Shown here in pieces: positions 6,192 through 62,934 of a stretch of DNA of 64,000 bases. The position numbers and the translations under genes are program-made. The stretch is from a virus (Duplodnaviria > Caudoviricetes): positions 96,001-160,000 of IMG/VR virus record IMGVR_UViG_3300020079_000007; one strand, given 5' to 3'. The number at the start of each line of letters is the position of its first letter. Position 1 is the stretch's first letter. The notes beneath the pieces are model-generated. The model saw nothing but the letters and a program-made list of their open reading frames with translations, had not been told where the DNA came from and searched no databases.

Positions 6192-6346
6192 GGAGTTTAT
6201 AAAAAGCGAGCGTAGAAAAATGTTTGGTCTTTAGCCAAACATATGAATACGCTCAATCTTTTCAAACTATATTAACTAAATATTATATATTTTAGAAACA
6301 CTAACTAAATATATAAAAGGTACTAACTAATATAAGGAGAAACAAA

Positions 6347-6775
6347 ATGAGAGAACTACAAACAAACTCACATTGCAAAAACTTGATTTTGTATCATCTC
6401 ATCTTCGTATGCAAATACAGAAGAAAATGTTTCTCTAATACTGATTTTGCAGAAAATCTAAAACTTCAGTTTTTTGAAATAGCAAAGAAATATGATTTTG
6501 AAATAGACACAATAGACTTAGATTACTCAAAGCCAGACCATATTCATATTCTTGTAAGAAGTGTTCCTAAACTAAGTCCATTGCAGATTGTAAGAGTTTT
6601 GAAACAGCAAGCAAACTATTGGGCTTGGCAAAACTATGAAACTTACCTAAAACAGTTCTATTGGAGAGCACATCATCTTTGGACAAGAGGATATTTCTGC
6701 TCAACAGTTGGTAATGTATCTGCTGATACATTTCACGAATACTTAGAAAGACAAGGGAGGAATGAACAATGCTAA
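6347..6775 (+). CDS. tnpA: Y1 HUH transposase
   Basis: YHLIFVCKYRR, PDHIHILV (HUH), LWTRGYFCSTVG, catalytic Y in EYLERQ. Confidence 0.95.
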   Translation: MRELQTNSHCKNLILYHLIFVCKYRRKCFSNTDFAENLKLQFFEIAKKYDFEIDTIDLDYSKPDHIHILVRSVPKLSPLQIVRVLKQQANYWAWQNYETYLKQFYWRAHHLWTRGYFCSTVGNVSADTFHEYLERQGRNEQC

Positions 6776-7986
6776 AAGCCTATGAGTTCAGAATCTTCCC
6801 AACAAAAGAACAAGAACAGTTTCTTCTCAAAACTAATGGTCTTTGCAGGTTGTATTGGAATACAGCTTTGGCAAGAAAACAAGAAGCTTATGACAATAAT
6901 GAAAAGTGGAATATTGGAACAGCTAAAAAGGTATTTGAAGAATGTAAACCTGAAGCTATTGAATGGTGTAATGAGGTAGATAGTTCTGCTTTAGCAGCAG
7001 AATGGAATGATATAACTTCAGCTTTCAACAACTTCTTCAAATCTTGTAAAGGACAAAGAAAACTTAGAGTGAATGCTCCAAAGTTCAAGTCAAGAAAATA
7101 CTCTCAAGTTGCTATTACTTGGACTTCAATGGCAAAGCCTAAAATCCTAAAGAACGGATATTTGTTCTTGACAAGAAAACTTGGTCCAGTGAAAGGAACT
7201 TTTCACAGATGGGCAGAAGGTGATTTCAAACACGCAACAATCAAACAAACCCCTACAGGAAAATGGTTTGTAAAGATTTGTGTTGATAAAAAAGACAAAC
7301 CTAAAAATAAAAATGGAAAATCAGTTGGTATAGACTGGAACTGTAGAGATGAAGACTTCATAGTAATGTCGAATGGCACGAAAGTCAAGTGTCCTAGATT
7401 CTTACAAAGGTCTTCTAAACAGCTTAGTCACCAACAGAAGATAATGAGCAAAAGATTTGTAAAAGGTCTTGAAACTCAAAGTTCCAACTATTACAGACAA
7501 AAACAAAAAGTTGCACTTTTGCACGAAAAAGTAACTAATCAAAGAAAAGATTGGTTACATAAACTTTCAAGACAAATCTGTAATGAGTATGAAACTGTAG
7601 TAGTTGAAGACATCAACTTACAGACAATGAGTAAAATGAATCACGGTAAAGTTGTGGGAGACCAAGGATTTGGAATGCTTAGGCAGATGATTTCTTACAA
7701 AGGTAATCTTGTAAAAGTAAATCCAAAAAACACTTCTAAAACTTGCCATAGTTGTGGATTTGTAAATCCAAAAGTAAAAGTTGGTGTAAACTATTGGGAA
7801 TGTCCAAGTTGTGGAGCAACCCACGACCGTGACATAAATGCAGCTCTAAATATACTTTTCAAGTATAATGCTAGCCAGAGCATAGTAGGCAGGGAACGAG
7901 CCGAAATTACAAATGCCTGTGGAGCACCAAGCAGTGCTGTGAAGCAGGAAGTTTCTAATCCATCAAGTCGAGTACTCGGCTCGTAA
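6769..7986 (+). CDS. tnpB: RNA-guided endonuclease TnpB
   Basis: RuvC GIDWN / VVEDIN / HDRDINAALNI intact; zinc finger CHSCG..CPSCG. Confidence 0.95.
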   Translation: MLKAYEFRIFPTKEQEQFLLKTNGLCRLYWNTALARKQEAYDNNEKWNIGTAKKVFEECKPEAIEWCNEVDSSALAAEWNDITSAFNNFFKSCKGQRKLRVNAPKFKSRKYSQVAITWTSMAKPKILKNGYLFLTRKLGPVKGTFHRWAEGDFKHATIKQTPTGKWFVKICVDKKDKPKNKNGKSVGIDWNCRDEDFIVMSNGTKVKCPRFLQRSSKQLSHQQKIMSKRFVKGLETQSSNYYRQKQKVALLHEKVTNQRKDWLHKLSRQICNEYETVVVEDINLQTMSKMNHGKVVGDQGFGMLRQMISYKGNLVKVNPKNTSKTCHSCGFVNPKVKVGVNYWECPSCGATHDRDINAALNILFKYNASQSIVGRERAEITNACGAPSSAVKQEVSNPSSRVLGS

Positions 7987-8050: not shown

Positions 8051-9241
8051 CTACTCTTCATCTGCTGTTTCGTTTTCCTCAGCCTGAGCGACAAGTTTCT
8101 CATATTCTTCTTTAGAGAAGTTCTGTTCTGCCCACTGTTCTTCATCAGCAGTATTTTCCATACCTTCAATCTCGTTAGAGATGATGTCCATAATAACATC
8201 CTTGATTGCTTTCCACTCTTCAGGTTTTACTTCACCCGACTGAATTGCCTTTACGAAAGCATCTTTTCCGTGGAAGTTCCAACCAAAGTTTGTCTTTGAA
8301 TTGTAGTAACCCTTTGAACGGCAGTCAACAAGTTTAAGCAATCTTGGGTCTTCTGCAAAGTCATACAAGAAGTCAACAAATTCTCCATCTGAATTGAAGC
8401 CACCTTTGTAGTAAAGGTCCATTTCACATTCACGGAATGGAATACCTGTCTTGTTCTTCATATTGCGGACCTGCATATGAATACCTACAACTTTTGAGCC
8501 TTCTGTAAGGTTTTCAATCTTACGAACACGGTTAAGAGTTGAAGCAACATATTTCAAAGCGTATCCACCAGTTGTTGCGATTGCGTGAGACATTGTATTC
8601 ATCTGAGCACGCTCTTGTGAAATGACAAACATTGTTGTGTGATAGTTGGCACAAAGAATGTTGAAACGGTTACAGAAGTCCTTCAAAGCTTTTGCGTTAT
8701 TACCAAAGTTGGCTTTATTGAACTCATCATCAAGAACTGTTTTTGTTACTGACATTGACTCAGAGTCGAAGATAACACAAGCAACTGTGTTTGACTTAAT
8801 CATCTGCTCGAGAGCAAAAGCGCCTTCTTCAAGGTTGTCAGGTTGCAACAATGTAAAGTGAGCATCTTTGTTGATTGAGCCATCTGGGTTTACCAAAGAT
8901 GTTACATCAAGACCATTCTCTTTTGCGTGATCTGGGTCGAAAGAACGCTCAAAGTCCATATAAACAACCATATCGTGGTCAGCAAGTTCTGGGAACTGTT
9001 CTCCCAAGTGTTTCTGAAACTGACCTGCAATATAAGTACAAATTGTAGACTTACCACCCGACTCAGGTCCAATGTAACGGTGAACTGCTCCGATCTTAAT
9101 ACCGCCACCGTACATAAAAGAAAGACGAGGAGAGTCAAGTCTCAACATCTTTTTAAGAGTATTTGAGTCTGCGGGCTTAATTGCGTTTGCGCATTTCTTT
9201 TGAACTGCAGCAACCGCCTTCAAAAAATCTGGACTAGCCAT
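8051..9241 (-). CDS. recA: RecA/UvsX-like recombinase
   Basis: Walker A GPESGGKST, DFERSFDP, VIFDS, ISQER, TTGGYALKYVAST, KNK. Confidence 0.92.
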   Translation of the reverse strand: MASPDFLKAVAAVQKKCANAIKPADSNTLKKMLRLDSPRLSFMYGGGIKIGAVHRYIGPESGGKSTICTYIAGQFQKHLGEQFPELADHDMVVYMDFERSFDPDHAKENGLDVTSLVNPDGSINKDAHFTLLQPDNLEEGAFALEQMIKSNTVACVIFDSESMSVTKTVLDDEFNKANFGNNAKALKDFCNRFNILCANYHTTMFVISQERAQMNTMSHAIATTGGYALKYVASTLNRVRKIENLTEGSKVVGIHMQVRNMKNKTGIPFRECEMDLYYKGGFNSDGEFVDFLYDFAEDPRLLKLVDCRSKGYYNSKTNFGWNFHGKDAFVKAIQSGEVKPEEWKAIKDVIMDIISNEIEGMENTADEEQWAEQNFSKEEYEKLVAQAEENETADEE

Positions 9242-9328
9242 TTTTCCTCCATAAATATAAAGGTCATATCAAAAGTTGATTGCTCTATTTATAGAGGACA
9301 CCTTGTAATAAAAATATATTAACAGTTA

Positions 9329-10030
9329 TTAGAAACTATCAAGAAGTGCACTGATTGGGTCGATTTCATTCTTCAACCCAATTCCTTTCATAGTACGATA
9401 ATACCTCGTTAAATTCATATGAGGCTGTGTTCTTGGTTGAGGCACATAAGTCCCATTTGCTTTCTGTTCTTCAATCTTTTTCTGCCACTCAGGTTTCTCA
9501 GACTTACGGCCGTTATTTGCTTCATAAGGTGACAACTTTAAACCGTCTTCACGAAGCTTTTGTCCTACAGGTTTAACTACCGCGCCTGCTTCTTCAAACT
9601 TCTTTATAAAGTCCGGCTTCCCAGGCTGATGTGGGTCTGTAACTTCAAAGTTGTGGTCTCCAAAAAGACCAATCTTTGCATCGTATTTATTCAAGAAAGC
9701 AAGTGTCTTGTAATTGCCACGAATAATCATACCTTCATTTTTTGGGTTATGACACTCACCGTAAATAAACTTTATGTAACCTTCTTCAGGTGTGTTGCCC
9801 ATTCCTTGAAAGTACTGCATATCATCAATGTCAACATCAATGTAGTTGCCTCTGTTTTTTGCAACTGTGATATGCGGCATTATTGCGCCGTCTTTTGTAA
9901 CAGCTTCTCTTTCTGTATCTGGGTTATCTTCAACAGGCTTTGCCTCTTCTTCAACTAAGTCTTTATCAATAAGACCTAATGCTTTGAGTGCTTCAAGCTC
10001 TGTTTCTGAATACCCTTCAATGTCAACCAT
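9329..10030 (-). CDS. Hypothetical protein (start re-called at ATG 10030)
   Basis: ATG overlaps the upstream stop and is preceded by GGAG. Confidence 0.6.
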   Translation of the reverse strand: MVDIEGYSETELEALKALGLIDKDLVEEEAKPVEDNPDTEREAVTKDGAIMPHITVAKNRGNYIDVDIDDMQYFQGMGNTPEEGYIKFIYGECHNPKNEGMIIRGNYKTLAFLNKYDAKIGLFGDHNFEVTDPHQPGKPDFIKKFEEAGAVVKPVGQKLREDGLKLSPYEANNGRKSEKPEWQKKIEEQKANGTYVPQPRTQPHMNLTRYYRTMKGIGLKNEIDPISALLDSF

Positions 10031-10589
10031 TACATATCTCCAAAAATAAACGGATAAACATCCTGTTTCCAAATCTCTTCAGGTGTTCTTCCGTTCAAAT
10101 GAATAAGCTTCTTATCCAAAGAAGACATTTCATATGCTCTTTCGAAAGCAGCAAGTTCTTGCTTCTTCTTATCAACGTCAAGTGAGAACGACAAGCCATC
10201 GCCTCTTTTCTTGTCTCTTTCAATAACTGCTTCAGGCGTATCAGTAAACACAATCAACTTTGTTACTGGGTTGTTGTGATTTACATAATCTCTTTCATAA
10301 TCGAAAACAAAGTCACCTGAATAATTACGATAGATTGGTGAGTAAACGGTTTCACCAAGATGTGCACGGTCAAATATCAAAACATTTTCATTTGGCACAA
10401 CTGACATCAAGTGGAACATTTCACGATAACGAATCTGTGAAGCAACTTTAATTGCATCATTTGTTTCAAGTTTAATGTTTGAATAATGAACAATGTGAAC
10501 AGCTTTGTTTCTTTTTTCACATTCTTTTTCAATAAGAGCAATTTGGGTACCTTTACCCATTGCATCTACCCCTCAACGATGATGTTCAT
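10030..10589 (-). pseudogene. Thymidylate/dNMP kinase-like gene with a 1-nt frameshift in a G4 run (10569-10572)
   Basis: ATG AAC ATC ATC GTT GAG GGG TAG; adding one G gives MNIIVEGVDAMGKGT (P-loop) joined to the 176-aa ORF containing FDRAHLGETVY. Confidence 0.75.
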
Positions 10590-10705
10590 CGTAACCCCCT
10601 TCGGTACTTTTCTTCATACCTATCAATAAATTTTATTTCATTATTATCGTGAAGCATTTTAATTTCTTCATCTGATAATTTTTGAGTGCTGTTTTCTGTT
10701 TCTAT
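10586..10705 (-). CDS. Small 39-aa ORF starting at ATA, coupled (ATGA) to the kinase
   Basis: IETENSTQKLSDEEIKMLHDNNEIKFIDRYEEKYRRGLR begins 5 nt after a GTTAATAT motif. Confidence 0.35.
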   Translation of the reverse strand: METENSTQKLSDEEIKMLHDNNEIKFIDRYEEKYRRGLR

Positions 10706-10719
10706 AATAAATATTAACC

Positions 10720-12054
10720 TCAGTCTTTAATAATTCTTCTTCCTGCAGGAGCCGCAGTTCCATTCAGCTCTCTTTCACGAGCATCAATTACTGGGCCAAA
10801 TGTATCACAAATGAAATCGCCGTTGAAGTATTTATCTTCAAGAATATCATAAAATTGTTTCAACAACTTTGCGTATTCATCGCGGTGTTCATACAAATAA
10901 TCAATCTTTTCCCACATTTCTTTAGGAGAAGAAACTTTTACATAATCTGGGAACTCTTTGAAGTAACCATCAGTGTCATAAGAGTTCTTGTCATAAAATG
11001 GAATAATTCCATAGTAAACCATTTTCCAAGGCTTCTGTGTTACAAAGTTTGGAAGACGGTGGTCAAATGCAGGAACATAAGTAAACATTGTTTCCCACAT
11101 TTCAGGCTGCATCTGCACAATACCTTTTTCGATAAAAGTATTAGGATGCTTCTGCTTTGCTTCATCACCCCATTTTCCGTAAACCTTTTCCTCAGGATGA
11201 ATATCAAGAACCCACTTTTCAAGATAAGACAAACGGTCAGTACCGTCATTCAAAGTAAGAACAAACTTTCTCTTTTTCTGATAAACATTTCCGTTTACTT
11301 CAATGTGGTCAGGATTGCTGAAATCAATCTTTGGCATATTTGCCATAAACATTCTTTCAAGTCCTGCATATTTGAAATGTAACTTGTGTTCAACATACTC
11401 TCCCGAGTTGTATCTTACAAGACGCTTTACTGAATACTTATCGCTCTCAATCTGAGAGAATGTAAAGATTTCGTGATTGATAATGTCTTTATGATTTGAT
11501 GGCACATATCTTGGGTCTTCATTGATATTATACCAAGGGAAGCCTTGCTTGTTCAAAAGATGTATCATTGGTCCACAATAATTTGCTGCCATCTGCATTG
11601 GGATTGCCTCAGTTGGCTTTGTTGCACAAATAATACCTTCGCCGCCGACTGATACTGATGCATCAGGTCCTTGCATAAAGAGACCCATATCAAACTTCAA
11701 ACCAAGATGGTCAACATATTCATCAAGTGTACGCCAAGCTTCACAGCCTTTCTTGTGTGTATCAGTTCTTTCCTTGCATTTTTCTTTTCCTGCAAACTCT
11801 CTTGCCTGAGCGTGCAAGTCGATAATGTTGCTTGGGATGTCAACTTTCTTAAAAACGTTTCCAAATCCGATTGCACTGTTCTTCTTTTTGAAATCAGCAA
11901 AATCAGAAGCGCCTATAATGTAGAACTTGTGTTGAGGATAACGGCGAGCAAGAGTAAAATAAAATATCTTCGGACTATCGTCGCCTGCATAAATCGACCA
12001 AGACTTTTCATCAAAGTACATTGAACGACCAAACTTTCCAATCGCAATATTCAT
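10720..12054 (-). CDS. DNA glycosyltransferase, T4 beta-glucosyltransferase-like (GT-B)
   Basis: MNIAIGK start; PNFVTQKPWKMV..IPFYDKNSYDT..VSSPKEMWEKIDYL..FYDIL resembles the BGT C-terminal region as recalled (NFITLRVWE..DEEFDT..). Confidence 0.65.
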   Translation of the reverse strand: MNIAIGKFGRSMYFDEKSWSIYAGDDSPKIFYFTLARRYPQHKFYIIGASDFADFKKKNSAIGFGNVFKKVDIPSNIIDLHAQAREFAGKEKCKERTDTHKKGCEAWRTLDEYVDHLGLKFDMGLFMQGPDASVSVGGEGIICATKPTEAIPMQMAANYCGPMIHLLNKQGFPWYNINEDPRYVPSNHKDIINHEIFTFSQIESDKYSVKRLVRYNSGEYVEHKLHFKYAGLERMFMANMPKIDFSNPDHIEVNGNVYQKKRKFVLTLNDGTDRLSYLEKWVLDIHPEEKVYGKWGDEAKQKHPNTFIEKGIVQMQPEMWETMFTYVPAFDHRLPNFVTQKPWKMVYYGIIPFYDKNSYDTDGYFKEFPDYVKVSSPKEMWEKIDYLYEHRDEYAKLLKQFYDILEDKYFNGDFICDTFGPVIDARERELNGTAAPAGRRIIKD

Positions 12055-12626
12055 TAGTTATAACCTCTTACGATATAATAATTTATTCCTGCAGCAACTG
12101 CCGCATCTATTCCAGTTTTTGAATCTTCGAACACAATACAAGTTGAAGGTATCTCATCGAAGTGTTGCATAGTTTTGATATAACATTCAGGAGACGGCTT
12201 TGTTTCAACAACATCTTCCTGTCCTACGATAATATCAAACACATCTTGGATTTTGAAATACTCCAAGATATTATTTATATTAACTTTCGAAGCTGCAGAC
12301 ACCAGAGCGATTTTCCATTTTCTTGACTTAAGGCCTTTAAGCATTTCAATCAACGGAGTATTAAGAGCGCCATTCTTGATATATTTTTTGTAAAGCTCTT
12401 TCTTGTCATCGTGTATTTGCTGCATAACTTCTGCAGTCATATTAGGGTCAAGCTGTTTCAAAAAGATTTTGTAATTAAGCCCGTTCCATTCTTTACAGTA
12501 TTGTTCATAACCTACATCATACCCGTGTTTTTCACAAGCTTCTTTATAAGCAAAATAGTTTATGTTGTTTGTATTGACGAGTGTACCGTCTAAGTCTACC
12601 ATTGCTAACATTATTTTTTCTCCCAA
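12054..12626 (-). CDS. HAD-superfamily phosphatase (beta-PGM-like)
   Basis: DLDGTLVNT, LVSAA, KPSP and VFEDSKTG motifs. Confidence 0.9.
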   Translation of the reverse strand: MGEKIMLAMVDLDGTLVNTNNINYFAYKEACEKHGYDVGYEQYCKEWNGLNYKIFLKQLDPNMTAEVMQQIHDDKKELYKKYIKNGALNTPLIEMLKGLKSRKWKIALVSAASKVNINNILEYFKIQDVFDIIVGQEDVVETKPSPECYIKTMQHFDEIPSTCIVFEDSKTGIDAAVAAGINYYIVRGYN

Positions 12627-13528
12627 AGATCCCAGATATTAAAGTAGCCTGACTCTTTATTAGACGAAGATACTCTACTAATAAGGTCTTTTACATATCT
12701 TATGTTATCACTGCACCAACGCTTTGTGACATCATCTTTTGCATAAGGTACAATACGATAGATTTTGAAAAGTAAGAAACCCAAAATCAATTTCATATTT
12801 GCTCTGGCGCATCCGTTAACATTTATCAAAAACTCGTGTGTAAAGTTTTTCAAATGTCTTTCCTGCTCTTCATCAAGTTCTTTATAACGATAAGACCAAT
12901 GACACAAGCTATCCTGAAGAACAGTTGCAATGTCAACATAAGGTGTATCAATGAATGAGTCAAGAAAATCAATAAGATGCAAAATTCTTGCTGATGATTT
13001 GATATACTTGTCGGGTTTATGTCCTACGATAATATTTTCAAGTGTAAGGTCTCCGTGACAATATCCCGCTCTTAATTCTTTAAGCTGTGGGCTGAACTCT
13101 CTCATAAACTCATCAAGTTCATTTTTAAGTTCAGGAGTCTTTTTAACCATATCATCACATTTACGCTGAAAGATTGATAAAGATTCATAAACTTTATTGA
13201 AAGCAAAATTGTACATTATGAATGCAGCAAGGTCAGTCGCTGTTGAAATACCTTTACATTTAAGCAACTCTTCTGCAACAGTATCGCCTTCGATAAAAGG
13301 CATCGTAACAGAAATGAATGGCTCACCACTAACAGTGCACTCATTGATGTCTAAAACCTTTGTGCCTACAATTTGATTGCGCTGACCACCTGCCCAAGTA
13401 GTTGCACACATTTGTTTGATTGCTTGTTCACGAAGTCTTGGCACATAAGAACCACTTGCAGACTTGATAACTTTATCACCCTGCTGTTCGACACTACAAC
13501 CCGAGTTTCCCTTTAAGCTCATCTTCAC
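12611..13528 (-). CDS. APH/choline-kinase-like phosphotransferase (putative sugar kinase)
   Basis: GNSG loop, CHGDLTLENII, LIDFL. Confidence 0.8.
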   Translation of the reverse strand: MKMSLKGNSGCSVEQQGDKVIKSASGSYVPRLREQAIKQMCATTWAGGQRNQIVGTKVLDINECTVSGEPFISVTMPFIEGDTVAEELLKCKGISTATDLAAFIMYNFAFNKVYESLSIFQRKCDDMVKKTPELKNELDEFMREFSPQLKELRAGYCHGDLTLENIIVGHKPDKYIKSSARILHLIDFLDSFIDTPYVDIATVLQDSLCHWSYRYKELDEEQERHLKNFTHEFLINVNGCARANMKLILGFLLFKIYRIVPYAKDDVTKRWCSDNIRYVKDLISRVSSSNKESGYFNIWDLWEKK

Positions 13529-14225
13529 TTACCTCTGATTTTAATTCTTTAAGTTCATCAGGTGTTCCAAACTCAAAGTGATCTTTTACATCAATTCTTT
13601 TTACATTGAGCAAGTAATTGTATAAACCTGACATATAAAATTCTTTTTGTGTTCCGTCATTAAAATAAAGAACTGCTGCTTTTGCAAATACTTCAGCATT
13701 CTTAAAATAATAGCAACCAAAAATTGCGTGATTAGAAACAGGATTCTTTTCAACAGTTCCTGCGTACTGTGTATCTTTTCCACCGATGTATTTGATATAA
13801 CCGAAGTGTGGTTCTCTTGATTTGAAAGACATAATTGCGCCTTCACAATCGTCTGGGATTTCAAATTCATTACAAGACATTGCGTGGTCACAGTCTTGAA
13901 ATACAATTGGGTCGCCATCAGCAAACTGTGAAATACCTGAAATAGCTGTGAACACAGGACCATTAAGTTGATAAGGTAAAACTGAAATCTTTGCTTCTGG
14001 GAAATACTTTTTGATTTCGGCATCAATCTTATATTCTTCGATATGTTCTTCAAGAACAATGAATGTCAAGTCTTTCATTGGGAAAGCTCTGATTGCCGAC
14101 TGTGCAGCCCACCAAAAGAATGGCTTGCCGTATAAATCTATAAGTGGCTTTGGAATTGATACATCATTTTGTTTGAATCTTGAGCCCGCGCCACCGCAGG
14201 GTATAACAATATGCACTTTGTTCAT
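13494..14225 (-). CDS. Sugar-phosphate nucleotidyltransferase (NTP_transferase)
   Basis: IPCGGAGSRF..PKPLI, DCD, VEKNPVS, EFYMSGLYN, FGTPDEL. Confidence 0.88.
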   Translation of the reverse strand: MNKVHIVIPCGGAGSRFKQNDVSIPKPLIDLYGKPFFWWAAQSAIRAFPMKDLTFIVLEEHIEEYKIDAEIKKYFPEAKISVLPYQLNGPVFTAISGISQFADGDPIVFQDCDHAMSCNEFEIPDDCEGAIMSFKSREPHFGYIKYIGGKDTQYAGTVEKNPVSNHAIFGCYYFKNAEVFAKAAVLYFNDGTQKEFYMSGLYNYLLNVKRIDVKDHFEFGTPDELKELKSEVSEDELKGKLGL

Positions 14226-14256
14226 AAAATGATATTAACATCCTATATAAAAATTA

Positions 14257-14281
14257 AGAGGAACTTGCGTTCCTCTTTTTT
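14257..14281 (-). terminator. Intrinsic terminator
   Basis: AAGAGGAAC-GCAA-GTTCCTCTT stem with GNRA loop on the minus strand; T-runs on both sides. Confidence 0.7.
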
Positions 14282-14295
14282 GATAAAGTTCTTAA

Positions 14296-14817
14296 TTAAA
14301 GCTCAGGAGCATTCAAGATGTCATTATCAAGTTTCTCGAAAACCTTCTTACGGAATTCGATAATATCTTTATAATGCTCTTTATACTTTCTGATAGCAGC
14401 GTTAGTTGCGGCAACCTGAATGTTGTAGTACTGGTCGTCGAGCTCTTTCTGCTTTGCTTCGATTTCAGTCTTTTCTTTTACTTCTTTCTGTGCGCCTTCA
14501 CAGTCGCAAGAGAACGTAATTGAATCCTTACCTACAAGAACAGCTTCGCCTTCAACCTTCGCTTTCTTTCCGCAGTAAGGACAATAAACAGCATCTTCGT
14601 AAATAGTTTTGATTTCTTTTGCGAAGTCTGTAAGTTCCTTTTCCTGTTCAGGAGCAGGCTGTCTTCCATTAAGCTGCTTCTTTACATTACGCCAGTTTCT
14701 CAACTTGGCTTCCTGATCTTCGTTAATACAAAGTGCAAATGTTGAAGCACCTGACTTTGCAATAACCTTTCCCAAAAGTTCTTTCTGGGCATCTGTCAAA
14801 ATAGTATCTTTTGCCAT
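14296..14817 (-). CDS. Hypothetical protein with Zn ribbon and coiled coil
   Basis: CPYCG and CDC motifs. Confidence 0.6.
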   Translation of the reverse strand: MAKDTILTDAQKELLGKVIAKSGASTFALCINEDQEAKLRNWRNVKKQLNGRQPAPEQEKELTDFAKEIKTIYEDAVYCPYCGKKAKVEGEAVLVGKDSITFSCDCEGAQKEVKEKTEIEAKQKELDDQYYNIQVAATNAAIRKYKEHYKDIIEFRKKVFEKLDNDILNAPEL

Positions 14818-14820
14818 TTG

Positions 14821-15138
14821 TTAAACTCCCATTAAAGTTGCCTGTTCAGACTCAGCGTCTTCAGGAAGAACAAAACCAAATGAGTTTTCGATTGTCTTCC
14901 AACCTGTCTTTTCTGTAACAACTGCGATAACTTCTTCTTTAGCTTTCTTGCCAATTGAAGGGGCATCAATAAGAATGAACTTATCATTGATAGCTTTCAT
15001 TCCTCTTTTCTTGTTCTGAAATGTTTCTCCACTTTCAATAGGAGCATTCAAAACGTCACGAATTACTTCATTTGCAGAAGGTGTATTCTCATATCTGAGA
15101 AAAAGTTCACCTTTGCAAAAATCTTCATACATTACCAT
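14821..15138 (-). CDS. Hypothetical protein
   Basis: 105-aa ORF with GAGG SD, in operon. Confidence 0.6.
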   Translation of the reverse strand: MVMYEDFCKGELFLRYENTPSANEVIRDVLNAPIESGETFQNKKRGMKAINDKFILIDAPSIGKKAKEEVIAVVTEKTGWKTIENSFGFVLPEDAESEQATLMGV

Positions 15139-15207: not shown

Positions 15208-15807
15208 TTATTTTGCTTTAACACCTGTTGAGCCAGCCCAACCGCTTCCACGGTTGTTATATCTGAAGCCTTCATAGAATTCATTTTCTGAAATCTTGTT
15301 ATCAGCTTCAACATCAACTTTCTCTTCAGTGTAAATGCAGGCTTCCTCAGTGCAGTAAACACGAGGCGCAAGCTGTGTTATTTTGTCATCTTCATAGATG
15401 TAAAGATAATCATCAGAAGTGTTTGTCAAAGAAAGATGAATCTCTCCCTGATAGTTTGGGTCAATTTCACAAGCACCTACATCAAGACCTTTCTTTGTTG
15501 CAATGCCTGACTTGTTTTCAACATACAAGTCCATCTGTAAACCATAAGAGATAAGTGGTATTGAAAGTTCAAGATATGATTTAATTCCTGATGGAATACA
15601 AACTCTTTCGTGTGGACCAACCATAATGCATTCTTTGCCTGCATCATCTTTTGTAATGTTTACTGCTGCTTTTGGATTCTTTTCAGCTTCCTCAGCACAA
15701 GTCTTTTTGAATGCATCATTGAACTTAGGAACAAAAAAGTCAAATCCTACATTACCGTCTTCACGATAAGGATCTGCAACATCCCTAATTTTAAGAAACT
15801 TTATCAT
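15208..15807 (-). CDS. dut: Trimeric dUTPase
   Basis: GFDF, NKSG, IDPNYQGEI, ITQL and RGSGWAGSTG motifs. Confidence 0.9.
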   Translation of the reverse strand: MIKFLKIRDVADPYREDGNVGFDFFVPKFNDAFKKTCAEEAEKNPKAAVNITKDDAGKECIMVGPHERVCIPSGIKSYLELSIPLISYGLQMDLYVENKSGIATKKGLDVGACEIDPNYQGEIHLSLTNTSDDYLYIYEDDKITQLAPRVYCTEEACIYTEEKVDVEADNKISENEFYEGFRYNNRGSGWAGSTGVKAK

Positions 15808-15838
15808 TATTCCATAACCTCCAAGTTATAGAATAATA

Positions 15839-16231
15839 TTAACACTGTTGTTGATTAGGGCCCTCTTCATAATTAAGCCACTGCCAATCAGAAGAAATCA
15901 TTTCAAAAGTTCTATCAAGGTCCGACTCCAACGGAGAAAGTCGGCCAATCAAGTTAATTCTGTATTTCATCCAAAGATTGTAGTATTCAATTGCAATATC
16001 AAAAAAGGCGACTGGGTTTTCACCCCAAGTGTTTACAACATATTTGTCTTCAGTCAACTTGAGAAAATCTTTAAGTTCTTTATAAAAGTTGTGAACATCA
16101 GCCGCGGCAAGTTCCCAGTCGAAATCTTGCTTTTTGTATATTATTCTTGTTGCAGCTTCCTTAAATCGTTGTAAGTGTCTTTTGACTCTTAATCTTAAAT
16201 CTTGTATTTCATTGTCTTTAAGCTGTCTCAT
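15839..16231 (-). CDS. Tandem paralog family, member 4
   Basis: WGENPVAFFDIAIEYYNLW; start re-called after GGAG. Confidence 0.6.
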   Translation of the reverse strand: MRQLKDNEIQDLRLRVKRHLQRFKEAATRIIYKKQDFDWELAAADVHNFYKELKDFLKLTEDKYVVNTWGENPVAFFDIAIEYYNLWMKYRINLIGRLSPLESDLDRTFEMISSDWQWLNYEEGPNQQQC

Positions 16232-40687: not shown

Positions 40688-41701
40688 ATGTCAAACAACT
40701 TATATGGTGAACAGTATAGCTGTTCACCTGTAGCACAAACAGTATCTTTAACTCTTCAGCATCTTACGATAGATGGCAAGACTTTAGCAGGTGAACAAGC
40801 AGACTACTCAAGTTTCTTTTCAGGCGGTACAACTGAGAAGTTTTTGTTACTTATTAAAGCCCCATTAAAATACTCTTTGTGGTTTGATTATGATTACAAT
40901 AAAAAAGACGATAATGATGTAAGAGTGCCTAACGGGCTCTTTGAAGGTTTGATTTTCAACATTGATAGCTCTTCAGATGCAAACTGTGAAATACTTCCTA
41001 TGTTTGTTGATGACAATGGGAATCCTATTAGAATGTTTGCAGTATTCAAAATATATCGTAATTTGAATTATGATGCAAACTCAGGTGAAAGCTGGAGAAC
41101 AGACTTATTTAATTTCTTAAAGCAGCATTTATATCTTCTTGACAGTATAGTTGATGATAACAATAATGATTTAAAATCAGACTTGATATATTTTGAACAA
41201 TCTCGAGAGCCGCCAGCAAATTATGGTGGGTATTTTTGTTATACAATTGCTGGCCACGTTGAGCAAGCATTAAGTAGAGACATTCTTAAAAAAGATGCAT
41301 ACTTTTGTTGCGTTAATGAAAGAGAAGATGCTTCTTATAAAAGGTTTGTATCTTTGCATTATTGTATTCGTTTTGCGTGCAATGGTAGGGAAGTGTATTA
41401 TGACACAACTACTAATCAATATACTTATAAAAAACCTCAAAAATATACAACTTTTTATGAAGCTGATACAACAAAAGGAGTAAATGAAAAGGACGCTCTT
41501 GCAGGATCATATGATGATTGCACAATGATAGATCCGTTTTTTGATAATTACAAAACGCCATCTGCTTACATAATCAATTCTTTAGGAGAAACATTTTTCT
41601 CTAAATTTGAAAATGCCCGCAAAATACAAAATCTTGCAGGCCAATCAGTTGGGACTGATAAAGTACTTCGTCCTATGATGTATATTACTTCACAAAGCTA
41701 A
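40688..41701 (+). CDS. Hypothetical protein
   Basis: 337-aa ORF following the tail fibre module. Confidence 0.6.
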   Translation: MSNNLYGEQYSCSPVAQTVSLTLQHLTIDGKTLAGEQADYSSFFSGGTTEKFLLLIKAPLKYSLWFDYDYNKKDDNDVRVPNGLFEGLIFNIDSSSDANCEILPMFVDDNGNPIRMFAVFKIYRNLNYDANSGESWRTDLFNFLKQHLYLLDSIVDDNNNDLKSDLIYFEQSREPPANYGGYFCYTIAGHVEQALSRDILKKDAYFCCVNEREDASYKRFVSLHYCIRFACNGREVYYDTTTNQYTYKKPQKYTTFYEADTTKGVNEKDALAGSYDDCTMIDPFFDNYKTPSAYIINSLGETFFSKFENARKIQNLAGQSVGTDKVLRPMMYITSQS

Positions 41702-42539
41702 CGCCATCAGGAGTCATAAAGCCAGCTTTTACAGTTGCAGGACAACCTGAGAAACCTTCTTTATTTGGCTGAGACCCACAATAAGGACACCAAGAACAAG
41801 AATGGGTCATATTGCCGCGGGCTCTTGACCAGTTCATTGTATGAATTGCTTCAATGTTTCCGATGTAGTGATTGTTGATTAAGTCTTCCATTTCTTCAGC
41901 AGTGTATTTGATTTCTTTTACACCGCGAAGCATATTCTGCTCAACTGTTTTATTTTCCAAATCCTTTTGCATAGGACCAAAAATAAACAACTTTACACGA
42001 GCAGCAGTCTGTTCGATTGTCCAACCTTTTTCAAGGCCTTTCATATAAGCATACAAAACTTGCTGAGGCTTGTAAGAGTTTGCGTTGATTGAAGCGCCTG
42101 TCTTATAATCATAGATAATTATTTCATCATCTTTTTCAAGGCACAAGTCAAGATAACCGATAAAAGGTTCATTGTTGATTGTATTTTTTACTTTGCCTTC
42201 CTGAGAAACTTTCCAGCCTTCAGCTTCTTTTGGAGCAATCAATTTATTCCAAAAGGCGAAAAACTTTGCAACAGCAGGATGATAGTCATAATAAAATTCT
42301 TTTTCTGGGTCAGTTACATTTACTTTGTAATGTTCAATTCTTTCATTAAGAATTTTCCAGAAATCTTCTTCAGACATACCTGTATGATACTTTTCAGCTG
42401 TTTCGTGAAAAGCAGATCCTTTATCTGCAAGTTGTGTGTTTACAGGCGCGGTTGATTTCCAATGTTCAACGTAATTGAGTTTATATTTAAGTGGGCATTC
42501 AACGAAACAACCGACTTTTGATGCTGACCAATTTGCCAT
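41685..42539 (-). CDS. Cas4/RecB-like PD-(D/E)XK exonuclease
   Basis: WSASK..ECP, GSAFH, GYLDL..YDYKTG, Q..LY, CSWCPYCG..C. Confidence 0.85.
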   Translation of the reverse strand: MANWSASKVGCFVECPLKYKLNYVEHWKSTAPVNTQLADKGSAFHETAEKYHTGMSEEDFWKILNERIEHYKVNVTDPEKEFYYDYHPAVAKFFAFWNKLIAPKEAEGWKVSQEGKVKNTINNEPFIGYLDLCLEKDDEIIIYDYKTGASINANSYKPQQVLYAYMKGLEKGWTIEQTAARVKLFIFGPMQKDLENKTVEQNMLRGVKEIKYTAEEMEDLINNHYIGNIEAIHTMNWSRARGNMTHSCSWCPYCGSQPNKEGFSGCPATVKAGFMTPDGVSFVK

Positions 42540-42557: not shown

Positions 42558-42586
42558 AATATAAAGTGTTTTTTACTCGGGTTTAA
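42558..42586 (-). promoter_or_regulatory. Early-type promoter TTAAAC-N17-TATATT
   Basis: Repeated motif with exact spacing. Confidence 0.65.
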
Positions 42587-43406
42587 TTATTTCTTTGAAA
42601 ACTTCAAAGTTATTTGAATAAGGTCCGTCATAAATTGCAAAAACAATTGTCTTAAAAAGAGTAGCTTTGATATATGCAGCGTCTTTCCAAGCTTTTGCAA
42701 CTGTTGCTGGGTCATTCTTAAATGCGCCGCATCCAAAAGCACCTACGACAATATGATCTACCTTCTTTTTATATGCAACATCGAAAATGCGACAAGCTCT
42801 TTTGTAATGAATGTTATAAAGTTCTTCATTGTCGACTTTACGGTCTATCGCTTTATCGACATTGAACATATCGCAATTCTTTTCACGAAGGTTTGGTGCT
42901 GCACAAGTAATTACATCAATCTTTGGATATGGGCTCTTCAAAAGAGTATAATTATCAGCTTTGAAAACTGCAACTTTAGGAGTCCAAATAATGTCGTCAT
43001 TGTGAAGTGGGTCGAGATTATCACGATGTGGTTTATAAAACTCATTCCAGCATTTTTCGTTTGAGATTGTGTTATATAAAGTTGAACAACGGCAAAGGCT
43101 CTCTTCCTGAGCTGATGACCCTTTTACAACGCCTCCGCCTGCAGTTGTTGCTGAAGCAAAGTTGAGTGCTGCAACATTACCACCAAGCTTTTCAAACAAA
43201 CTTCTTGCAGCGTCAAAAGTACCCGACTTTATAACTGCAATGTTCGCTGATTTTGAATTGATTGAAGGTTCAAGCTTCAAATCTTTTCCTTCAGGAATTA
43301 CTTGCATATACTGATTTGTGTAAGTTATCACATCCTGCAATTCTTTTGTGTTTGCAATTCTTGCACAACTGTCTCTAAAAACCTCAATGTTACTTTCCCT
43401 GCTCAT
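42573..43406 (-). CDS. Bacterial-type PARG macrodomain (TIGR02452/DUF2263-like)
   Basis: LNFASA..GGG..GSSAQEESLCRCSTLY and GAFGCGAF. Confidence 0.88.
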   Translation of the reverse strand: MSRESNIEVFRDSCARIANTKELQDVITYTNQYMQVIPEGKDLKLEPSINSKSANIAVIKSGTFDAARSLFEKLGGNVAALNFASATTAGGGVVKGSSAQEESLCRCSTLYNTISNEKCWNEFYKPHRDNLDPLHNDDIIWTPKVAVFKADNYTLLKSPYPKIDVITCAAPNLREKNCDMFNVDKAIDRKVDNEELYNIHYKRACRIFDVAYKKKVDHIVVGAFGCGAFKNDPATVAKAWKDAAYIKATLFKTIVFAIYDGPYSNNFEVFKEIIKPE

Positions 43407-61827: not shown

Positions 61828-62037
61828 ATGGGTATGGAGTGGTATTCTCAAGGTAAAAAAGAAAATAATGTTGTAGACCCTTGGGAAAATGTAACTGAAA
61901 TGTGTGATGTTTGTGGAAAAGATATACCTGTAAGAGAGACTCAAAGGGTTGTTTGGTTCTCTCTTACCGGTACTAGGTATGTTATAAGAAAACATCCTTC
62001 TTGTGATCCAATGCAAATAATTCAGTACTTAAGTTAG
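61828..62037 (+). CDS. Small Zn-finger-like protein
   Basis: CDVCG...HPSC; start directly after ACTAATT. Confidence 0.5.
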   Translation: MGMEWYSQGKKENNVVDPWENVTEMCDVCGKDIPVRETQRVVWFSLTGTRYVIRKHPSCDPMQIIQYLS

Positions 62038-62660
62038 TCTTTTATGATACGACGCGCAGGAGCTTCTGCCTTTCTTTCTTCTTCTGATATCCAATCCAAA
62101 ACAAGTTCACCTTGTTCATCGAACTTACAATCATAATAAGCTCTTGATGCCATATAATCAGCGTAATGCAAAACCCACTCGTCAAACTTTCTTGGCTGTT
62201 CGTTTTCAAACCCAGGCATCTGTCTTGATGTTATCCAGATGCCCTGATGTGCAGCAATCAAACGCCCGATTGTTTCAAAGCCGTGTTCTTTACAATAATC
62301 ACCACCAAGCTTTGGGTGGTCGAAAGCAGTGAACTCGTGGTCTCTTCCTTCAGGATACTTCCACATATCGTGCAAGATCGCAGCAGCAACCAATTCATCT
62401 TTTTCACTTTCAACTGCAGGTGTTGCACGAACTAAGTCAAGGACATTTCTTACAACAACTTTGATGTGGCGGATAAGTCCACCTTCGCCTGAAGCAGACT
62501 TAAGATGATACTTACCTGTTGAAGATGCTGGCTTAATACGATGATCTGGGTGGACATCATCAAGGGTCTTGCGAACAAAGTTGGCAATCTCGATGTTATC
62601 AATCTGAGCAACTTCATAAGCAAGCAATTCATTTAGTGTTCGATCTTTGTAGTTAACCAT
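62034..62660 (-). CDS. HD-domain phosphohydrolase
   Basis: PASSTGKYH..GGLIRH, ILHDMWK, HQG, HYADY; start re-called after GAGGG. Confidence 0.85.
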   Translation of the reverse strand: MVNYKDRTLNELLAYEVAQIDNIEIANFVRKTLDDVHPDHRIKPASSTGKYHLKSASGEGGLIRHIKVVVRNVLDLVRATPAVESEKDELVAAAILHDMWKYPEGRDHEFTAFDHPKLGGDYCKEHGFETIGRLIAAHQGIWITSRQMPGFENEQPRKFDEWVLHYADYMASRAYYDCKFDEQGELVLDWISEEERKAEAPARRIIKD

Positions 62661-62934
62661 TTGTCCCCTCGAAAAACTTAAACAAAGTTTCGTTTGCATC
62701 CATCAACAAATCTTCTTTTGTCTTTTTGCTTTTGGCTCTTCTTTTCAAGTTTGCGGCCATAACCATAACCGCGCCTTTTTCTTCTTTCAAAATTGGGTCG
62801 ATACGATTTACCAAATCATCCTGCAACTCCTGAAGAGTTGCCTTCTGATACTTCGTACCGCCCCACGCAGACATAAATGCCTCGATAGCTTTTGAAAGAG
62901 GATTGTTCCCTTGAGGAATATCTTCTTTTTTCAT
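62653..62934 (-). CDS. Hypothetical protein
   Basis: 93-aa ORF in operon. Confidence 0.55.
   Translation of the reverse strand: MKKEDIPQGNNPLSKAIEAFMSAWGGTKYQKATLQELQDDLVNRIDPILKEEKGAVMVMAANLKRRAKSKKTKEDLLMDANETLFKFFEGTNG

Follow-up and report, generated by a model that had tools for sequence, protein, structure and literature searches.

Does this uncultured giant phage make its own activated sugar and attach it to its own DNA? The question arises from four overlapping minus-strand genes (10720-14225) in the window, i.e. the whole stretch of 64,000 nt that was analysed, from a source record about 65% complete. These genes encode a nucleotidyltransferase (NT), an APH-like kinase, a HAD phosphatase and a 444-aa glycosyltransferase (GT). 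Gene content, folds, active-site signatures, synteny and co-occurrence were established directly. It is probable, at roughly 60%, that the four-gene unit turns a sugar or sugar phosphate taken from the host into an NDP-sugar, and adds the sugar to 5hmC of the phage's own DNA. All window coordinates below are on the minus strand.

Organization of the locus

A thymidylate-kinase-like (Tmk-like) gene and then UvsX follow on the 3' side of the GT, and a dUTPase-like gene lies upstream of the operon. The preliminary description had reported overlapping genes for the NT, APH-like kinase, HAD and BGT-like GT, followed by a dNMP kinase and with a dUTPase nearby, and all were found at their places. The overlaps are 35 nt (NT/kinase), 16 nt (kinase/HAD) and 1 nt (HAD/GT). 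Ahead of the NT, a terminator-like hairpin (14256..14277; a 9-bp stem, then a T-rich tail) closes the upstream unit, and a GTTAATAT promoter-like motif (14232..14239) stands just upstream of the NT start. This motif occurs 11 times in the window (3.3 expected), a count reached in 0 of 100 shuffles; the copies are mostly intergenic and 5' of genes. A second GTTAATAT (10711..10718) lies directly 3' of the GT stop codon, is kept with its surroundings in L014 and L017, and is the boundary at which the four-gene unit ends and the next unit begins. The overlaps, the upstream hairpin and motif, and the motif after the GT stop suggest that the four genes form one transcription unit; the three donor genes would be translationally coupled to the GT.

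The ten-gene order is identical in the sister contig L014 (301 kb) and in L015. The dUTPase-like protein (15208..15807, 199 aa; Pfam dUTPase PF00692 25 bits, over the cut-off; NCBIfam dut 2e-10) shows recognisable motifs 3 and 5 in its translation, and its gene also heads the locus in L004, L014, L015 and L019-L023. A conserved 105-aa protein (14821..15138) gave no family match in Pfam, PHROG or NCBIfam; its gene adjoins the dUTPase gene in sister phages irrespective of the type of donor cassette. The conserved 173-aa protein (14296..14817), also kept in sister phages, has a weak zinc-ribbon (Lar/TRASH-like) signal, its Pfam and NCBIfam matches all being sub-threshold. On the other side, a 247-aa protein (9329..10072) between the Tmk-like gene and UvsX is kept only in the closest relatives, and found no match in Pfam, PHROG, NCBIfam or Atlas. 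The UvsX/RecA recombinase (8051..9241; Pfam RecA 1.7e-28; phrog_97 1.4e-51) is a conserved neighbour downstream of the GT locus.

The Tmk-like nucleotide kinase was called as a 3' part of 176 aa (10030..10560; phrog_761 8.5e-8), with a weak Pfam match (17 bits, below the cut-off). RB69 gp45 belongs to the same PHROG at 1.6e-45. The called translation starts with MGKGTQ, halfway through the P-loop; an orphan 5' piece (10566..10589; MNIIVEG, then a stop) was recognised when the locus was aligned with L014 and L017. Compared with the intact 186-aa orthologs, which read MNVIIEGCDAMGKGTQ at this site in L014 and L017, the assembly carries a 1-nt deletion after codon 7. The dNMP kinase proposed after the GT is present as a Tmk-like gene; however, its matches are weak and its frame is broken by the deletion.

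The glycosyltransferase

The GT (10720..12054) has no Pfam, PHROG or NCBIfam match, and its assignment to the GT-B enzymes comes from the AlphaFold (AF2) model (pLDDT 91). The top Foldseek match is T4 BGT (E 5e-8); VIA also gives T4 BGT (Z 20.8, 316 residues aligned; next GT-B Z 17.8), and T4 AGT and the HY126 DNA glycosyltransferase are among the structure matches. The earlier suggestion of a BGT-like protein was therefore borne out at the structural level. Alignment by hhalign to T4 BGT reached a probability of 62%; the UDP-phosphate binders of BGT, R195 and R269, align with the invariant R274 and K341. For Asp100, the catalytic residue of BGT, this alignment shows no clear counterpart. The GT is predicted to transfer a sugar to 5hmC in DNA. 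Its disordered C-terminal tail (10723..10758; pLDDT <50 at residues 438-444) ends in RRIIKD. Tails of this type are common to the GT, the clamp loader, an HD hydrolase and a DNA polymerase A fragment, which suggests that the RRII tail probably holds the GT at the replisome.

In many viral contigs, the GT family shows tight linkage to RecA and to genes for dCMP hydroxymethylase. A thymidylate-synthase homolog is also carried by 13 of the 18 viral records with the GT family, including both records (2/2) that are at least 90% complete. All distinct thymidylate-synthase homologs located within 10 kb of the GT family in viral contigs (35/35) have the D/C/D/D signature, as does the homolog encoded by this genome. 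Most such loci also hold RecA and AfhE/AfhF-like or other NT genes. The arrangement recurs in Enterococcus phage Planchet.

The acceptor base

The preliminary description had seen no thymidylate-synthase homolog in the window, which is correct; the genome search for a dCMP hydroxy(methyl)ase that it recommended located one about 52 kb before the window (G000:C1:43526-44350), not linked to the operon. The best PDB match of this homolog is T4 dCMP hydroxymethylase, T4 gp42 (3e-38), whereas true thymidylate synthases score about 1e-5 and RB69 gp48 scores 4e-4. In E. coli ThyA numbering it has C146, L143D and N177D, and D169 is retained. RB69 gp48 is D169N, a change diagnostic of 5hodCMP synthases (PMC13326640), and the RB69 sugar sits on 5-hydroxycytosine, not on hmC (PMC13326640). 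The homolog is predicted to be a cytosine-specific dCMP hydroxymethylase of the T4 gp42 type. Since Asp169 is kept together with the T4 hydroxymethylase signature, the acceptor base should be 5hmC rather than the 5-hydroxycytosine of RB69. The idea of a hydroxylated pyrimidine acceptor thus stands insofar as a cytosine-specific base-modifying enzyme is encoded; the RB69-type parallel does not, because the signature is that of the T4 hydroxymethylase.

The donor genes

The sugar-1-phosphate nucleotidyltransferase (13494..14225, 243 aa; phrog_3980 1e-30) matches Pfam NTP_transf_3 at 22.5 bits, below the cut-off, and NTP_transferase likewise sub-threshold. It aligns with PDB 4evw (3.7e-7), has an N-terminal G-rich loop (residues 9-16), and its homologs of about 245 aa carry NTP_transferase. 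It is the predicted step that makes the NDP-sugar. The stand-alone APH/ELK-fold small-molecule (sugar) kinase (12611..13528, 305 aa; Pfam APH E 2e-6, over the cut-off) has the motifs GHSGC, K22, HGDxxxEN and IDFLD, invariant in 34 homologs; stand-alone homologs of about 300 aa also occur. Foldseek with its AF2 model (pLDDT 91) finds APH(2'') and maltokinase. The kinase gene is a divergence hot-spot, with DNA identity to the sister phage L014 of 65-77% versus 95-99% in the flanks. The third enzyme is an HAD-IA phosphatase of the beta-phosphoglucomutase family (12054..12626, 190 aa; Pfam HAD_2 E 6e-33). Among PDB structures it matches TM_1254 best, an enzyme that removes phosphate from phosphorylated carbohydrates (7e-19), and it has the full catalytic set of DxDG, S, K and ED; the beta-PGM residues K45 and R49 were looked for and are absent. 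With the invariant kinase motifs, the HAD catalytic residues and this best match, the kinase and HAD look competent.

A sugar-phosphate isomerase had also been suggested as a search target elsewhere in the genome. In the record, about 65% complete, no isomerase or epimerase was found whose product would have to be a non-host sugar, nor any SIS/arabinose-5-phosphate isomerase.

The kinase also matches choline kinase and EcKL models in Pfam, a TagF polymerase appears at rank 20 in the GT Foldseek list, and the AfhE domains were reported to have LicC/LicA-like folds (PMC13326640, Table 1). These would fit a scheme in which the NT and kinase produce a donor of the CDP-alcohol type (with phospho-choline, -ethanolamine, -glycerol or the like), and a TagF-like GT-B enzyme puts the phospho-alcohol on 5hmC. 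Such a scheme is exceedingly unlikely; TagF ranks far below BGT, AGT and the GT-B enzymes that transfer sugars, the best matches of the NT are sugar-1-phosphate enzymes, and that of the HAD is a sugar-phosphate phosphatase.

An uncharacterised bacterial operon (L110, L111) encodes a GT2, an NT, an LPG_synthase_TM-kinase fusion and HAD_2. Each of the three phage donor genes has its homolog there, and their order is kept. The NTs are 39-47% identical, the HADs 33% (E 2e-26), and the kinase profiles align over 250 columns (hhalign 97.2%, E 3e-11). In the bacterial operon, the kinase is joined to a membrane flippase-like domain and partnered with a GT2, so its target is likely a lipid-linked envelope glycan; the phage kinase, by contrast, is a soluble protein partnered with the BGT-like GT-B enzyme. 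Moreover, one bacterial kinase homolog sits in a surface-polysaccharide locus. The phage operon might accordingly use a cassette from an envelope-glycan operon and act off DNA, on an envelope polymer of the host or on a protein of either phage or host, e.g. for superinfection exclusion or receptor masking. This has little chance of being right, since the membrane domain is lost from the phage kinase, and the GT has its nearest structural relative in the DNA glucosyltransferase BGT, not among GT2 enzymes. The linkage of its family to hydroxymethylase genes and RecA, and the tail that matches polymerase and clamp-loader tails, also argue for DNA as the target.

Comparison with known systems

The Afh system makes arabinosyl-5-hydroxycytosine in E. 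coli phages RB69 and HY126 and in Acinetobacter phage DLP3 (PMC13326640). It shares with the present locus a phage-encoded donor pathway of kinase, HAD and NT, a GT-B DNA glycosyltransferase and a Tmk-like gene (PHROG 761). The transcription order beside uvsX is also shared (RB69: NT, kinase, HAD, TS, GT, Tmk-like, uvsX), and the kinase profile aligns weakly with the C-terminal domain of AfhE (hhalign 82-93%). With the order NT, kinase, HAD, GT, Tmk-like, uvsX being identical, and the Tmk-like gene in the PHROG of RB69 gp45, a true Afh-type pathway to arabinosyl (or other glycosyl) 5-hydroxycytosine might be supposed, as in RB69, DLP3 and HY126. It is nevertheless very unlikely. The predicted base is 5hmC, with Asp169 kept, whereas the Afh base is 5hoC (D169N). 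The NT and kinase are two genes here but fused in AfhE; the NT belongs to phrog_3980 rather than phrog_4098; the HAD is of the HAD-IA beta-PGM family and not of the small gp51/AfhF type; the arabinose-5-phosphate isomerase (SIS) is absent; and the thymidylate-synthase gene lies outside the cluster. BLASTP of the operon proteins against the RB69 cluster proteins found no similarity to any. Judged by this null result, the differing PHROGs and the absent isomerase, the donor trio is not orthologous, at the sequence level, to the AfhE/AfhF arabinose pathway of RB69/HY126. The RB69 parallel drawn earlier for the donor cluster holds for the gene order by uvsX but not for the donor enzymes.

The T-even glucosyl-5hmC system (T4 gp42, gp1, gp56, alpha-/beta-glucosyltransferase) shares the gp42-type hydroxymethylase with the same active-site signature. 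The closest GT structure is that of T4, and the GT occupies the beta-gt position by uvsX (T4 order 42, beta-gt, uvsX). However, T4 BGT is of 351 aa rather than 444 aa, and the sequence kinship is remote, with no Pfam match and the hhalign probability given above. T4 takes host UDP-glucose without a donor pathway of its own; whereas three donor genes are present here.

In the sister jumbo-phage loci (L004, L019-L023), the GT family is 51-55% identical and is flanked by the dUTPase, 105-aa, 173-aa, Tmk-like and RecA genes. The Enterococcus phages Planchet and 9183 (Denvervirus) carry the GT family at about 26% identity, and in Planchet, unlike here, the hydroxymethylase is inside the cluster. 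Both groups differ from the present locus in an AfhE-like fused NT-kinase (542-544 aa), which replaces the separate NT, kinase and HAD_2. The sister phages have swapped the donor cassette for this AfhE-like fusion at the same locus.

GT homologs of 56-61% identity have no donor genes nearby (L010, L011), which indicates that a donor supplied by the host can suffice for this family. The non-glucose sugar (pentose or novel) that the preliminary description proposed is therefore one candidate beside that of a common host donor. The GT may then use an ordinary host donor, e.g. UDP-glucose as T4 BGT does, while the NT/kinase/HAD trio tops up or bypasses the supply of the same donor, e.g. through a route to hexose-1-phosphate that needs no phosphoglucomutase; the end base would be the already known glucosyl-5hmC. 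This is unlikely, although the beta-phosphoglucomutase family of the HAD and the absence of an isomerase/epimerase to create an unusual sugar would suit it. The missing K45 and R49 speak against it, and the AfhE-like cassette swap and the kinase divergence fit sugar diversification better than housekeeping supply.

Proposed pathway

For the preferred reading, a phage-made donor for the glycosylation of 5hmC, we infer the substrates, the order of steps from C1 phosphate transfer to NDP-sugar, the sugar identity and the DNA acceptor. The dUTPase-like enzyme, together with host enzymes, would supply dCMP; it may give dUMP/dCMP and keep out dUTP or dCTP. The gp42-type hydroxymethylase would make 5hm-dCMP, which a nucleotide kinase would raise to the di- and triphosphate; the Tmk-like gene is the candidate for this step, provided that it is unbroken in the actual phage. 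The polymerase would then build 5hmC into DNA. In parallel, the APH-like kinase and HAD would jointly shift the phosphate to the sugar C1: either the HAD first frees the sugar for phosphorylation at C1 by the kinase, or the kinase first yields a bisphosphate, from which the HAD strips the distal phosphate. The NT would convert the product to the NDP-sugar, and the BGT-like GT-B enzyme, probably tethered to the replisome by its RRII tail, would glycosylate 5hmC in duplex DNA.

If true, a known strategy of DNA camouflage would be carried out with donor enzymes unrelated to the published ones, and its likely benefit for the phage would be protection against restriction and CRISPR nucleases.

Gene organization of the cluster

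The viral record (IMG/VR) comprises 188,745 bp, of which the window covers 96001-160000, and was rated about 65% complete (CheckV). All long ORFs between 8051 and 15807 are on the minus strand. The first gene in transcription order encodes a dUTPase-like protein (15208-15807; Pfam cut-off passed), followed by two genes for conserved proteins of 105 and 173 aa. The four central genes encode a nucleotidyltransferase (NT) of 243 aa (13494-14225; phrog_3980, 1e-30, below the Pfam threshold), an APH-like kinase of 305 aa (12611-13528; Pfam APH, 2e-6, cut-off passed, no PHROG match), a HAD phosphatase of 190 aa (12054-12626; Pfam HAD_2, 6e-33, cut-off passed), and a glycosyltransferase (GT) of 444 aa with a BGT-like fold and no profile match (10720-12054). 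A thymidylate-kinase-like (Tmk-like) protein (10030-10560; phrog_761, 8.5e-8), a 247-aa protein, and UvsX/RecA (8051-9241; RecA Pfam cut-off passed) are encoded next. The preliminary description had proposed overlapping NT, APH-like kinase, HAD and BGT-like GT genes with a dNMP-kinase-like gene after them and a dUTPase nearby, and this cluster is indeed present. The 247-aa, 173-aa and 105-aa proteins gave nothing informative in Pfam, PHROG, NCBIfam or Atlas, and a blastn search of the cluster DNA against 50,697 phage records returned zero matches. An IS605 OrfB/TnpB-type gene (OrfB_IS605, Cas12f1-like TNB, HTH) adjoins UvsX on the opposite strand (6769-7986, plus strand).

The overlaps among the four central genes are 35, 16 and 1 nt. 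Ahead of the four-gene set lie a hairpin (14256-14277) and one copy of GTTAATAT (14232-14239), and a second copy (10711-10718) follows the stop codon of the last gene, the GT. These overlaps and bounding signals make the four genes look like a single transcription unit. The window has 11 copies of GTTAATAT where 3.3 would be expected, most of them just 5' of genes, and further examples are found at 9316-9323, 15836-15843 and 6269-6276 (all the copies cited are on the minus strand). The element probably serves the phage as a promoter. The four-gene operon is read here, with a probability of about 0.6, as making an NDP-sugar and placing it on the 5hmC of the phage DNA.

Elsewhere in the record, a protein with a microbial-type poly(ADP-ribose) glycohydrolase domain (3e-34) lies beside a PD-(D/E)XK nuclease (42573-43406 and 41685-42539 of the window, both minus strand), and this pair may be directed against host defence. 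Moreover, the phage encodes a full flagellin (G000:C1:85178-86035 on the whole record, equal to L108:1179-2036 in locus coordinates, minus strand; Flagellin_N, 1.7e-42; Flagellin_C, 8.8e-26).

Structure of the 444-aa glycosyltransferase

Pfam, PHROG and NCBIfam searches of the GT gave no match, and the family includes at least 75 metagenomic homologs. A structure model built on 38 homologs reached a pLDDT of 91. In the Foldseek search with this model, ranks 1-6 were all T4 BGT (E 5e-8), followed by the T4 alpha-glucosyltransferase (AGT). The VIA-align comparison with BGT (1j39) gave Z 20.8 and rmsd 3.8, with 316/344 residues aligned; the next GT-B enzyme scored 17.8, three units below BGT, and the HY126 DNA glycosyltransferase and AGT scored 16.4 and 15.6. 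The modelled enzyme thus has a GT-B fold that is nearest to BGT across the whole chain, and the earlier naming of the protein as BGT-like is borne out at the level of fold. The profile-level agreement is weak but collinear (hhalign between the family alignment and T4 BGT: 62% probability, E 7.5e-5, 231 columns). In this same weak alignment, the two BGT residues that bind the UDP phosphate, R195 and R269, align with the family-invariant R274 and K341. The catalytic Asp100 of BGT pairs with a non-conserved Lys, and the invariant D180 is found eleven residues on, in a stretch where the alignment is uncertain.

The C-terminus of the GT is a disordered tail ending in P-x-G-RRIIKD. Three further proteins of the genome end in it too, namely an HD hydrolase, the clamp loader (phrog_5846, 5e-34) and a DNA polymerase A fragment (Pfam, 8e-10), and the consensus over all four is P-x-(G)-RRII-[KQN]-x. 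The positions are 10723-10758 for the tail of the GT, and for the other proteins 62034-62699 and 62939-64000 of the window (minus strand) and G000:C1:93365-94417 of the record (plus strand; L108:9366-10418). Some GT orthologs (P0003, P0016 and P0024) have the RRII tail as well. The tail looks like a portable docking peptide for a replisome component. A 240-aa candidate sliding clamp, encoded 5' of the clamp loader, had no match in Pfam or PHROG.

Base-modifying enzyme and predicted acceptor

No base-hydroxylating thymidylate-synthase (TS) homolog is found in the window, as the preliminary description had stated; the search of the rest of the genome recovered a gp42-type homolog at G000:C1:43526-44350 (L003:1453-2277, minus strand). 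The best PDB match of this protein is the T4 dCMP hydroxymethylase (1b49, 3.4e-38), whereas genuine thymidylate synthases match at only about 1e-5. Alignment with E. coli ThyA, T4 gp42 and RB69 gp48 showed the catalytic Cys146 together with Asp143, Asp177 and Asp169 (ThyA numbering). The whole T4 gp42-type set is therefore present, namely Cys146, N177D for cytosine specificity, L143D/E for water access, and a retained Asp169; whereas RB69 gp48 has Asn at position 169. Lee et al. reported that RB69 and DLP3 put arabinose on 5-hydroxycytosine, and that D169N is the mark of 5hodCMP synthases (PMC13326640). Judged by this rule, the TS homolog is not of the 5hodCMP-synthase type, and the retained Asp169 and the gp42-type signature predict that the phage would make 5-hydroxymethyl-dCMP, like T4. 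The gene adjoining the TS homolog (G000:C1:44436-45152; L003:2363-3079 in locus coordinates, minus strand) matches the S-adenosylmethionine lyase family weakly (1.2e-5, below the cut-off), and its product may have an anti-restriction function.

The linkage between the two enzymes was analyzed in a sample of 78 viral loci encoding GT relatives. A TS homolog was found in 13 of 18 searchable whole records with the GT family, a set that does not include the complete 280-300-kb sister contigs L004 and L014. Both records of at least 90% completeness are among the 13, and the five GT-bearing records lacking a TS homolog were rated 25-65% complete. The GT and the TS homolog are mostly within a few kb of one another. 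The signature D/C/D/D (residues 143/146/169/177) was present in all 13 homologs, and then in 35/35 distinct homologs located within 10 kb of a GT; D169N occurred in none of either set. RecA, an RB69-gp51-like phosphatase and an NT protein of about 500 aa, either AfhE-like or of another type, are usually encoded at the same GT loci. For example, the Enterococcus phage Planchet has the same arrangement, with an annotated pyrimidine hydroxymethylase. The position is also shared with known DNA glycosyltransferases, as the order is 42, beta-gt, uvsX in T4 and TS, GT, Tmk-like, uvsX in RB69. The transferase might instead act on a protein or a glycan; however, the TS-homolog linkage, its signature, the RecA/uvsX neighbourhood, the T4/RB69 position and the RRII tail make DNA the far more likely acceptor. 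More specifically, 5hmC in duplex DNA is the predicted acceptor, based on the linkage to hmC-type TS genes and the replisome-shared tail.

Donor enzymes and their bacterial relatives

The kinase carries the complete APH/ELK set, i.e. the Gly-rich loop, the ATP-binding Lys, the HxDxxxxN loop and the DFG-equivalent D; the motifs GHSGC, K22, H158-G-D160...N165 and I186-D-F-L-D190 vary little or not at all among 34 homologs. Its fold is nearest to the aminoglycoside 2''-kinases APH(2'') and maltokinase, and these matches are generic. The HAD phosphatase retains DxDG, S, K and ED at its catalytic positions, and its best match is the sugar-phosphate phosphatase TM_1254 (7e-19), which it resembles more closely than beta-phosphoglucomutase. 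A true beta-phosphoglucomutase was rejected on account of the missing distal-phosphate cap residues, since in the HMMER alignment with 1lvh the positions of K45 and R49 are occupied by Asn and Tyr. The top matches of the NT are sugar-1-phosphate nucleotidyltransferases. In MurNAc recycling, a phosphatase (MupP), an anomeric kinase (AmgK) and a uridylyltransferase (MurU) act one after another. The logic of the donor trio (NT, kinase and phosphatase) matches either this route or the Afh pathway, the arabinosyl-5-hydroxycytosine pathway of RB69, HY126 and DLP3. In the latter, A5P is converted through a bisphosphate and a sugar-1-phosphate to the UDP-sugar (PMC13326640).

The NT and kinase genes were also considered as a frameshifted fusion. 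This was rejected, as the overlapping pair recurs in the related loci L014 and L015, and kinases of about 300 aa commonly occur on their own. The 527-aa neighbour in the related locus L007 is a double NT rather than an NT-kinase, and the fusion in the sister contig L004 has no tblastn similarity to the NT/kinase region. A sugar-phosphate isomerase, which the preliminary description had proposed to look for, was not found in the 188,745-bp record (about 65% complete) with PF01380 (SIS isomerase), and an HMM from the RB69 isomerase matched nothing in any GT locus. Searches of the entire 188-kb record for the GT1 and GT2 families also found nothing.

Bacterial homologs of the NT (39-47% identity) are sited in an operon of GT2, NT, a 635-aa LPG_synthase_TM protein and HAD_2, which was recovered in two bacterial loci (L110:344-10230 and L111:6217-10183). 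The 635-aa protein matched the phage kinase profile over its C-terminal half with 97.2% probability (E 3e-11, 250 columns); whereas the C-terminal domain of AfhE, the fused NT-kinase of the Afh system, matched it less well (82-93%, 116-140 columns). The bacterial HAD is 33% identical to the phage HAD (E 2e-26). These three homologies indicate that the trio mirrors the bacterial module in the same order, and by sequence the bacterial operon is the closest relative of the phage donor trio. The phage kinase differs in having no membrane domain, and the BGT-like enzyme stands in the place of GT2. The bacterial module, which probably serves a lipid-linked envelope glycan, appears to be uncharacterized; a literature search on the TIGR00374-kinase module found no characterization.

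Comparison with the Afh system

The phage locus resembles the Afh system in its Tmk-like kinase gene (phrog_761, as RB69 gp45) and in a GT-B enzyme beside uvsX. The base-modifying enzymes are different, with Asn169 in the Afh TS homolog and Asp169 here. The Afh system has one bifunctional NT-kinase (phrog_4098, to which both RB69 gp52 and gp53 belong); whereas two separate overlapping genes are present here, and the NT belongs to phrog_3980 and the kinase to no PHROG. The Afh phosphatase AfhF (RB69 gp51) is a small HAD-like protein of phrog_1238; whereas the phage phosphatase is an HAD_2 protein of the beta-PGM family, and would be a functional analogue only of AfhF by sequence. BLASTP of all cluster proteins against RB69 gp44-gp55 gave nothing significant; UvsX was undetected too, and the TS homolog reached just 4e-4. 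Since the base-modifying enzyme and the counterparts of AfhE and AfhF all differ, the locus would work in the manner of the Afh system yet falls outside it. The analogy with RB69 drawn in the preliminary description holds for the order of the GT, the Tmk-like gene and uvsX; whereas orthology of the donor enzymes is contradicted by BLASTP and the PHROG assignments.

Variation of the locus among relatives

The 301-kb contig L014, which is identical to the IMG/VR locus L017 in this region, has the same ten genes in unchanged order. The flanks and the GT are 95-99% identical to the window DNA; whereas the identity drops to 65-77% in the kinase gene (12633-13523, minus strand) and recovers through the phosphatase; the kinase of L014 is 64% identical to that of the window. 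The kinase homologs in the databases fall into discrete identity classes of 87-95%, 64-68% and 34-37%. In the comparison with L015, the protein identity is 91% for the GT, 84% for the phosphatase and 68% for RecA, and just 35% for the kinase. The sister phages L004 and L019-L023 have the same flanks, and an AfhE-like fusion of 542 aa replaces the trio. Three other relatives have a class II aldolase/epimerase, a tandem double NT (527 aa), a PRK-like kinase and HAD_2 ahead of the same GT family (L006/L007:4119-9290, and L024). The GT occurs without donor genes in L010 and L011. An element resembling the IS605 OrfB/TnpB-type gene interrupts the corresponding region of L010.

The different donor cassettes, the kinase divergence and the donor-less loci show that the locus is modular, and the cassette and kinase variation is read from these comparisons as a putative diversification of the donor. 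In the main alternative, the donor would be a common sugar of the host type, for example glucose. L010 and L011 keep this explanation alive, since the GT family can evidently work without a phage-made donor; it is nevertheless considered unlikely for this phage.

The Tmk-like gene, as called, begins with MGKGTQ, which is in the middle of the P-loop. A short reading frame 29 bases upstream, with a good Shine-Dalgarno sequence, encodes MNIIVEG and then stops; whereas the intact 186-aa orthologs read MNVIIEGCDAMGKGTQ. A 1-nt deletion after codon 7 thus splits 10566-10589 from 10030-10560 (minus strand); it could reflect a mistake in the assembly, a genuine lesion or a site of recoding. Just upstream of the gene is a 117-nt insertion (about 10590-10706), which is absent from L014 and L017.

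Implications for phage DNA glycosylation

DNA modification of this kind is already known from T-even glucosylation and Afh arabinosylation, and the general theme is covered in the literature of 2018-2026. What is new is that the donor trio is non-orthologous and bacterially derived, that cassettes are swapped at a fixed locus, that the kinase is a hot-spot of divergence, that this BGT-like family is strictly associated with hmC-type enzymes, and that the GT has a replisome-type tail. Among phage-encoded donor pathways in the literature examined, only Afh was found, and it feeds 5-hydroxycytosine. The pairing predicted here is different, as a phage-made donor would be used on 5hmC, and the three non-orthologous enzymes have their nearest relatives in a bacterial operon that probably serves an envelope glycan.

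A more specific version can be put forward tentatively, and is rather doubtful as a whole. The sugar on 5hmC would be new to DNA, and its donor pathway would have come, by capture, from an envelope-glycosylation operon of bacteria rather than from Afh. The swapped cassettes (AfhE-like; aldolase, double NT and PRK; NT, kinase and HAD_2) and the kinase alleles would then change the sugar ahead of one conserved, replisome-tethered GT. If this is true, the locus would serve as a modular site of 'glyco-diversification' in the contest between phages and modification-dependent nucleases.

The cluster also offers candidate 5hmC-labelling enzymes, including an anomeric or bisphosphate-forming kinase, a promiscuous nucleotidyltransferase and a DNA glycosyltransferase. 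Whether a phage genome can be read by restriction enzymes, by type IV and CRISPR nucleases and by sequencing chemistries depends on cytosine glycosylation. The cassette swap and the kinase hot-spot ahead of a conserved GT point to a concrete and testable route by which phage DNA glycans might be diversified.
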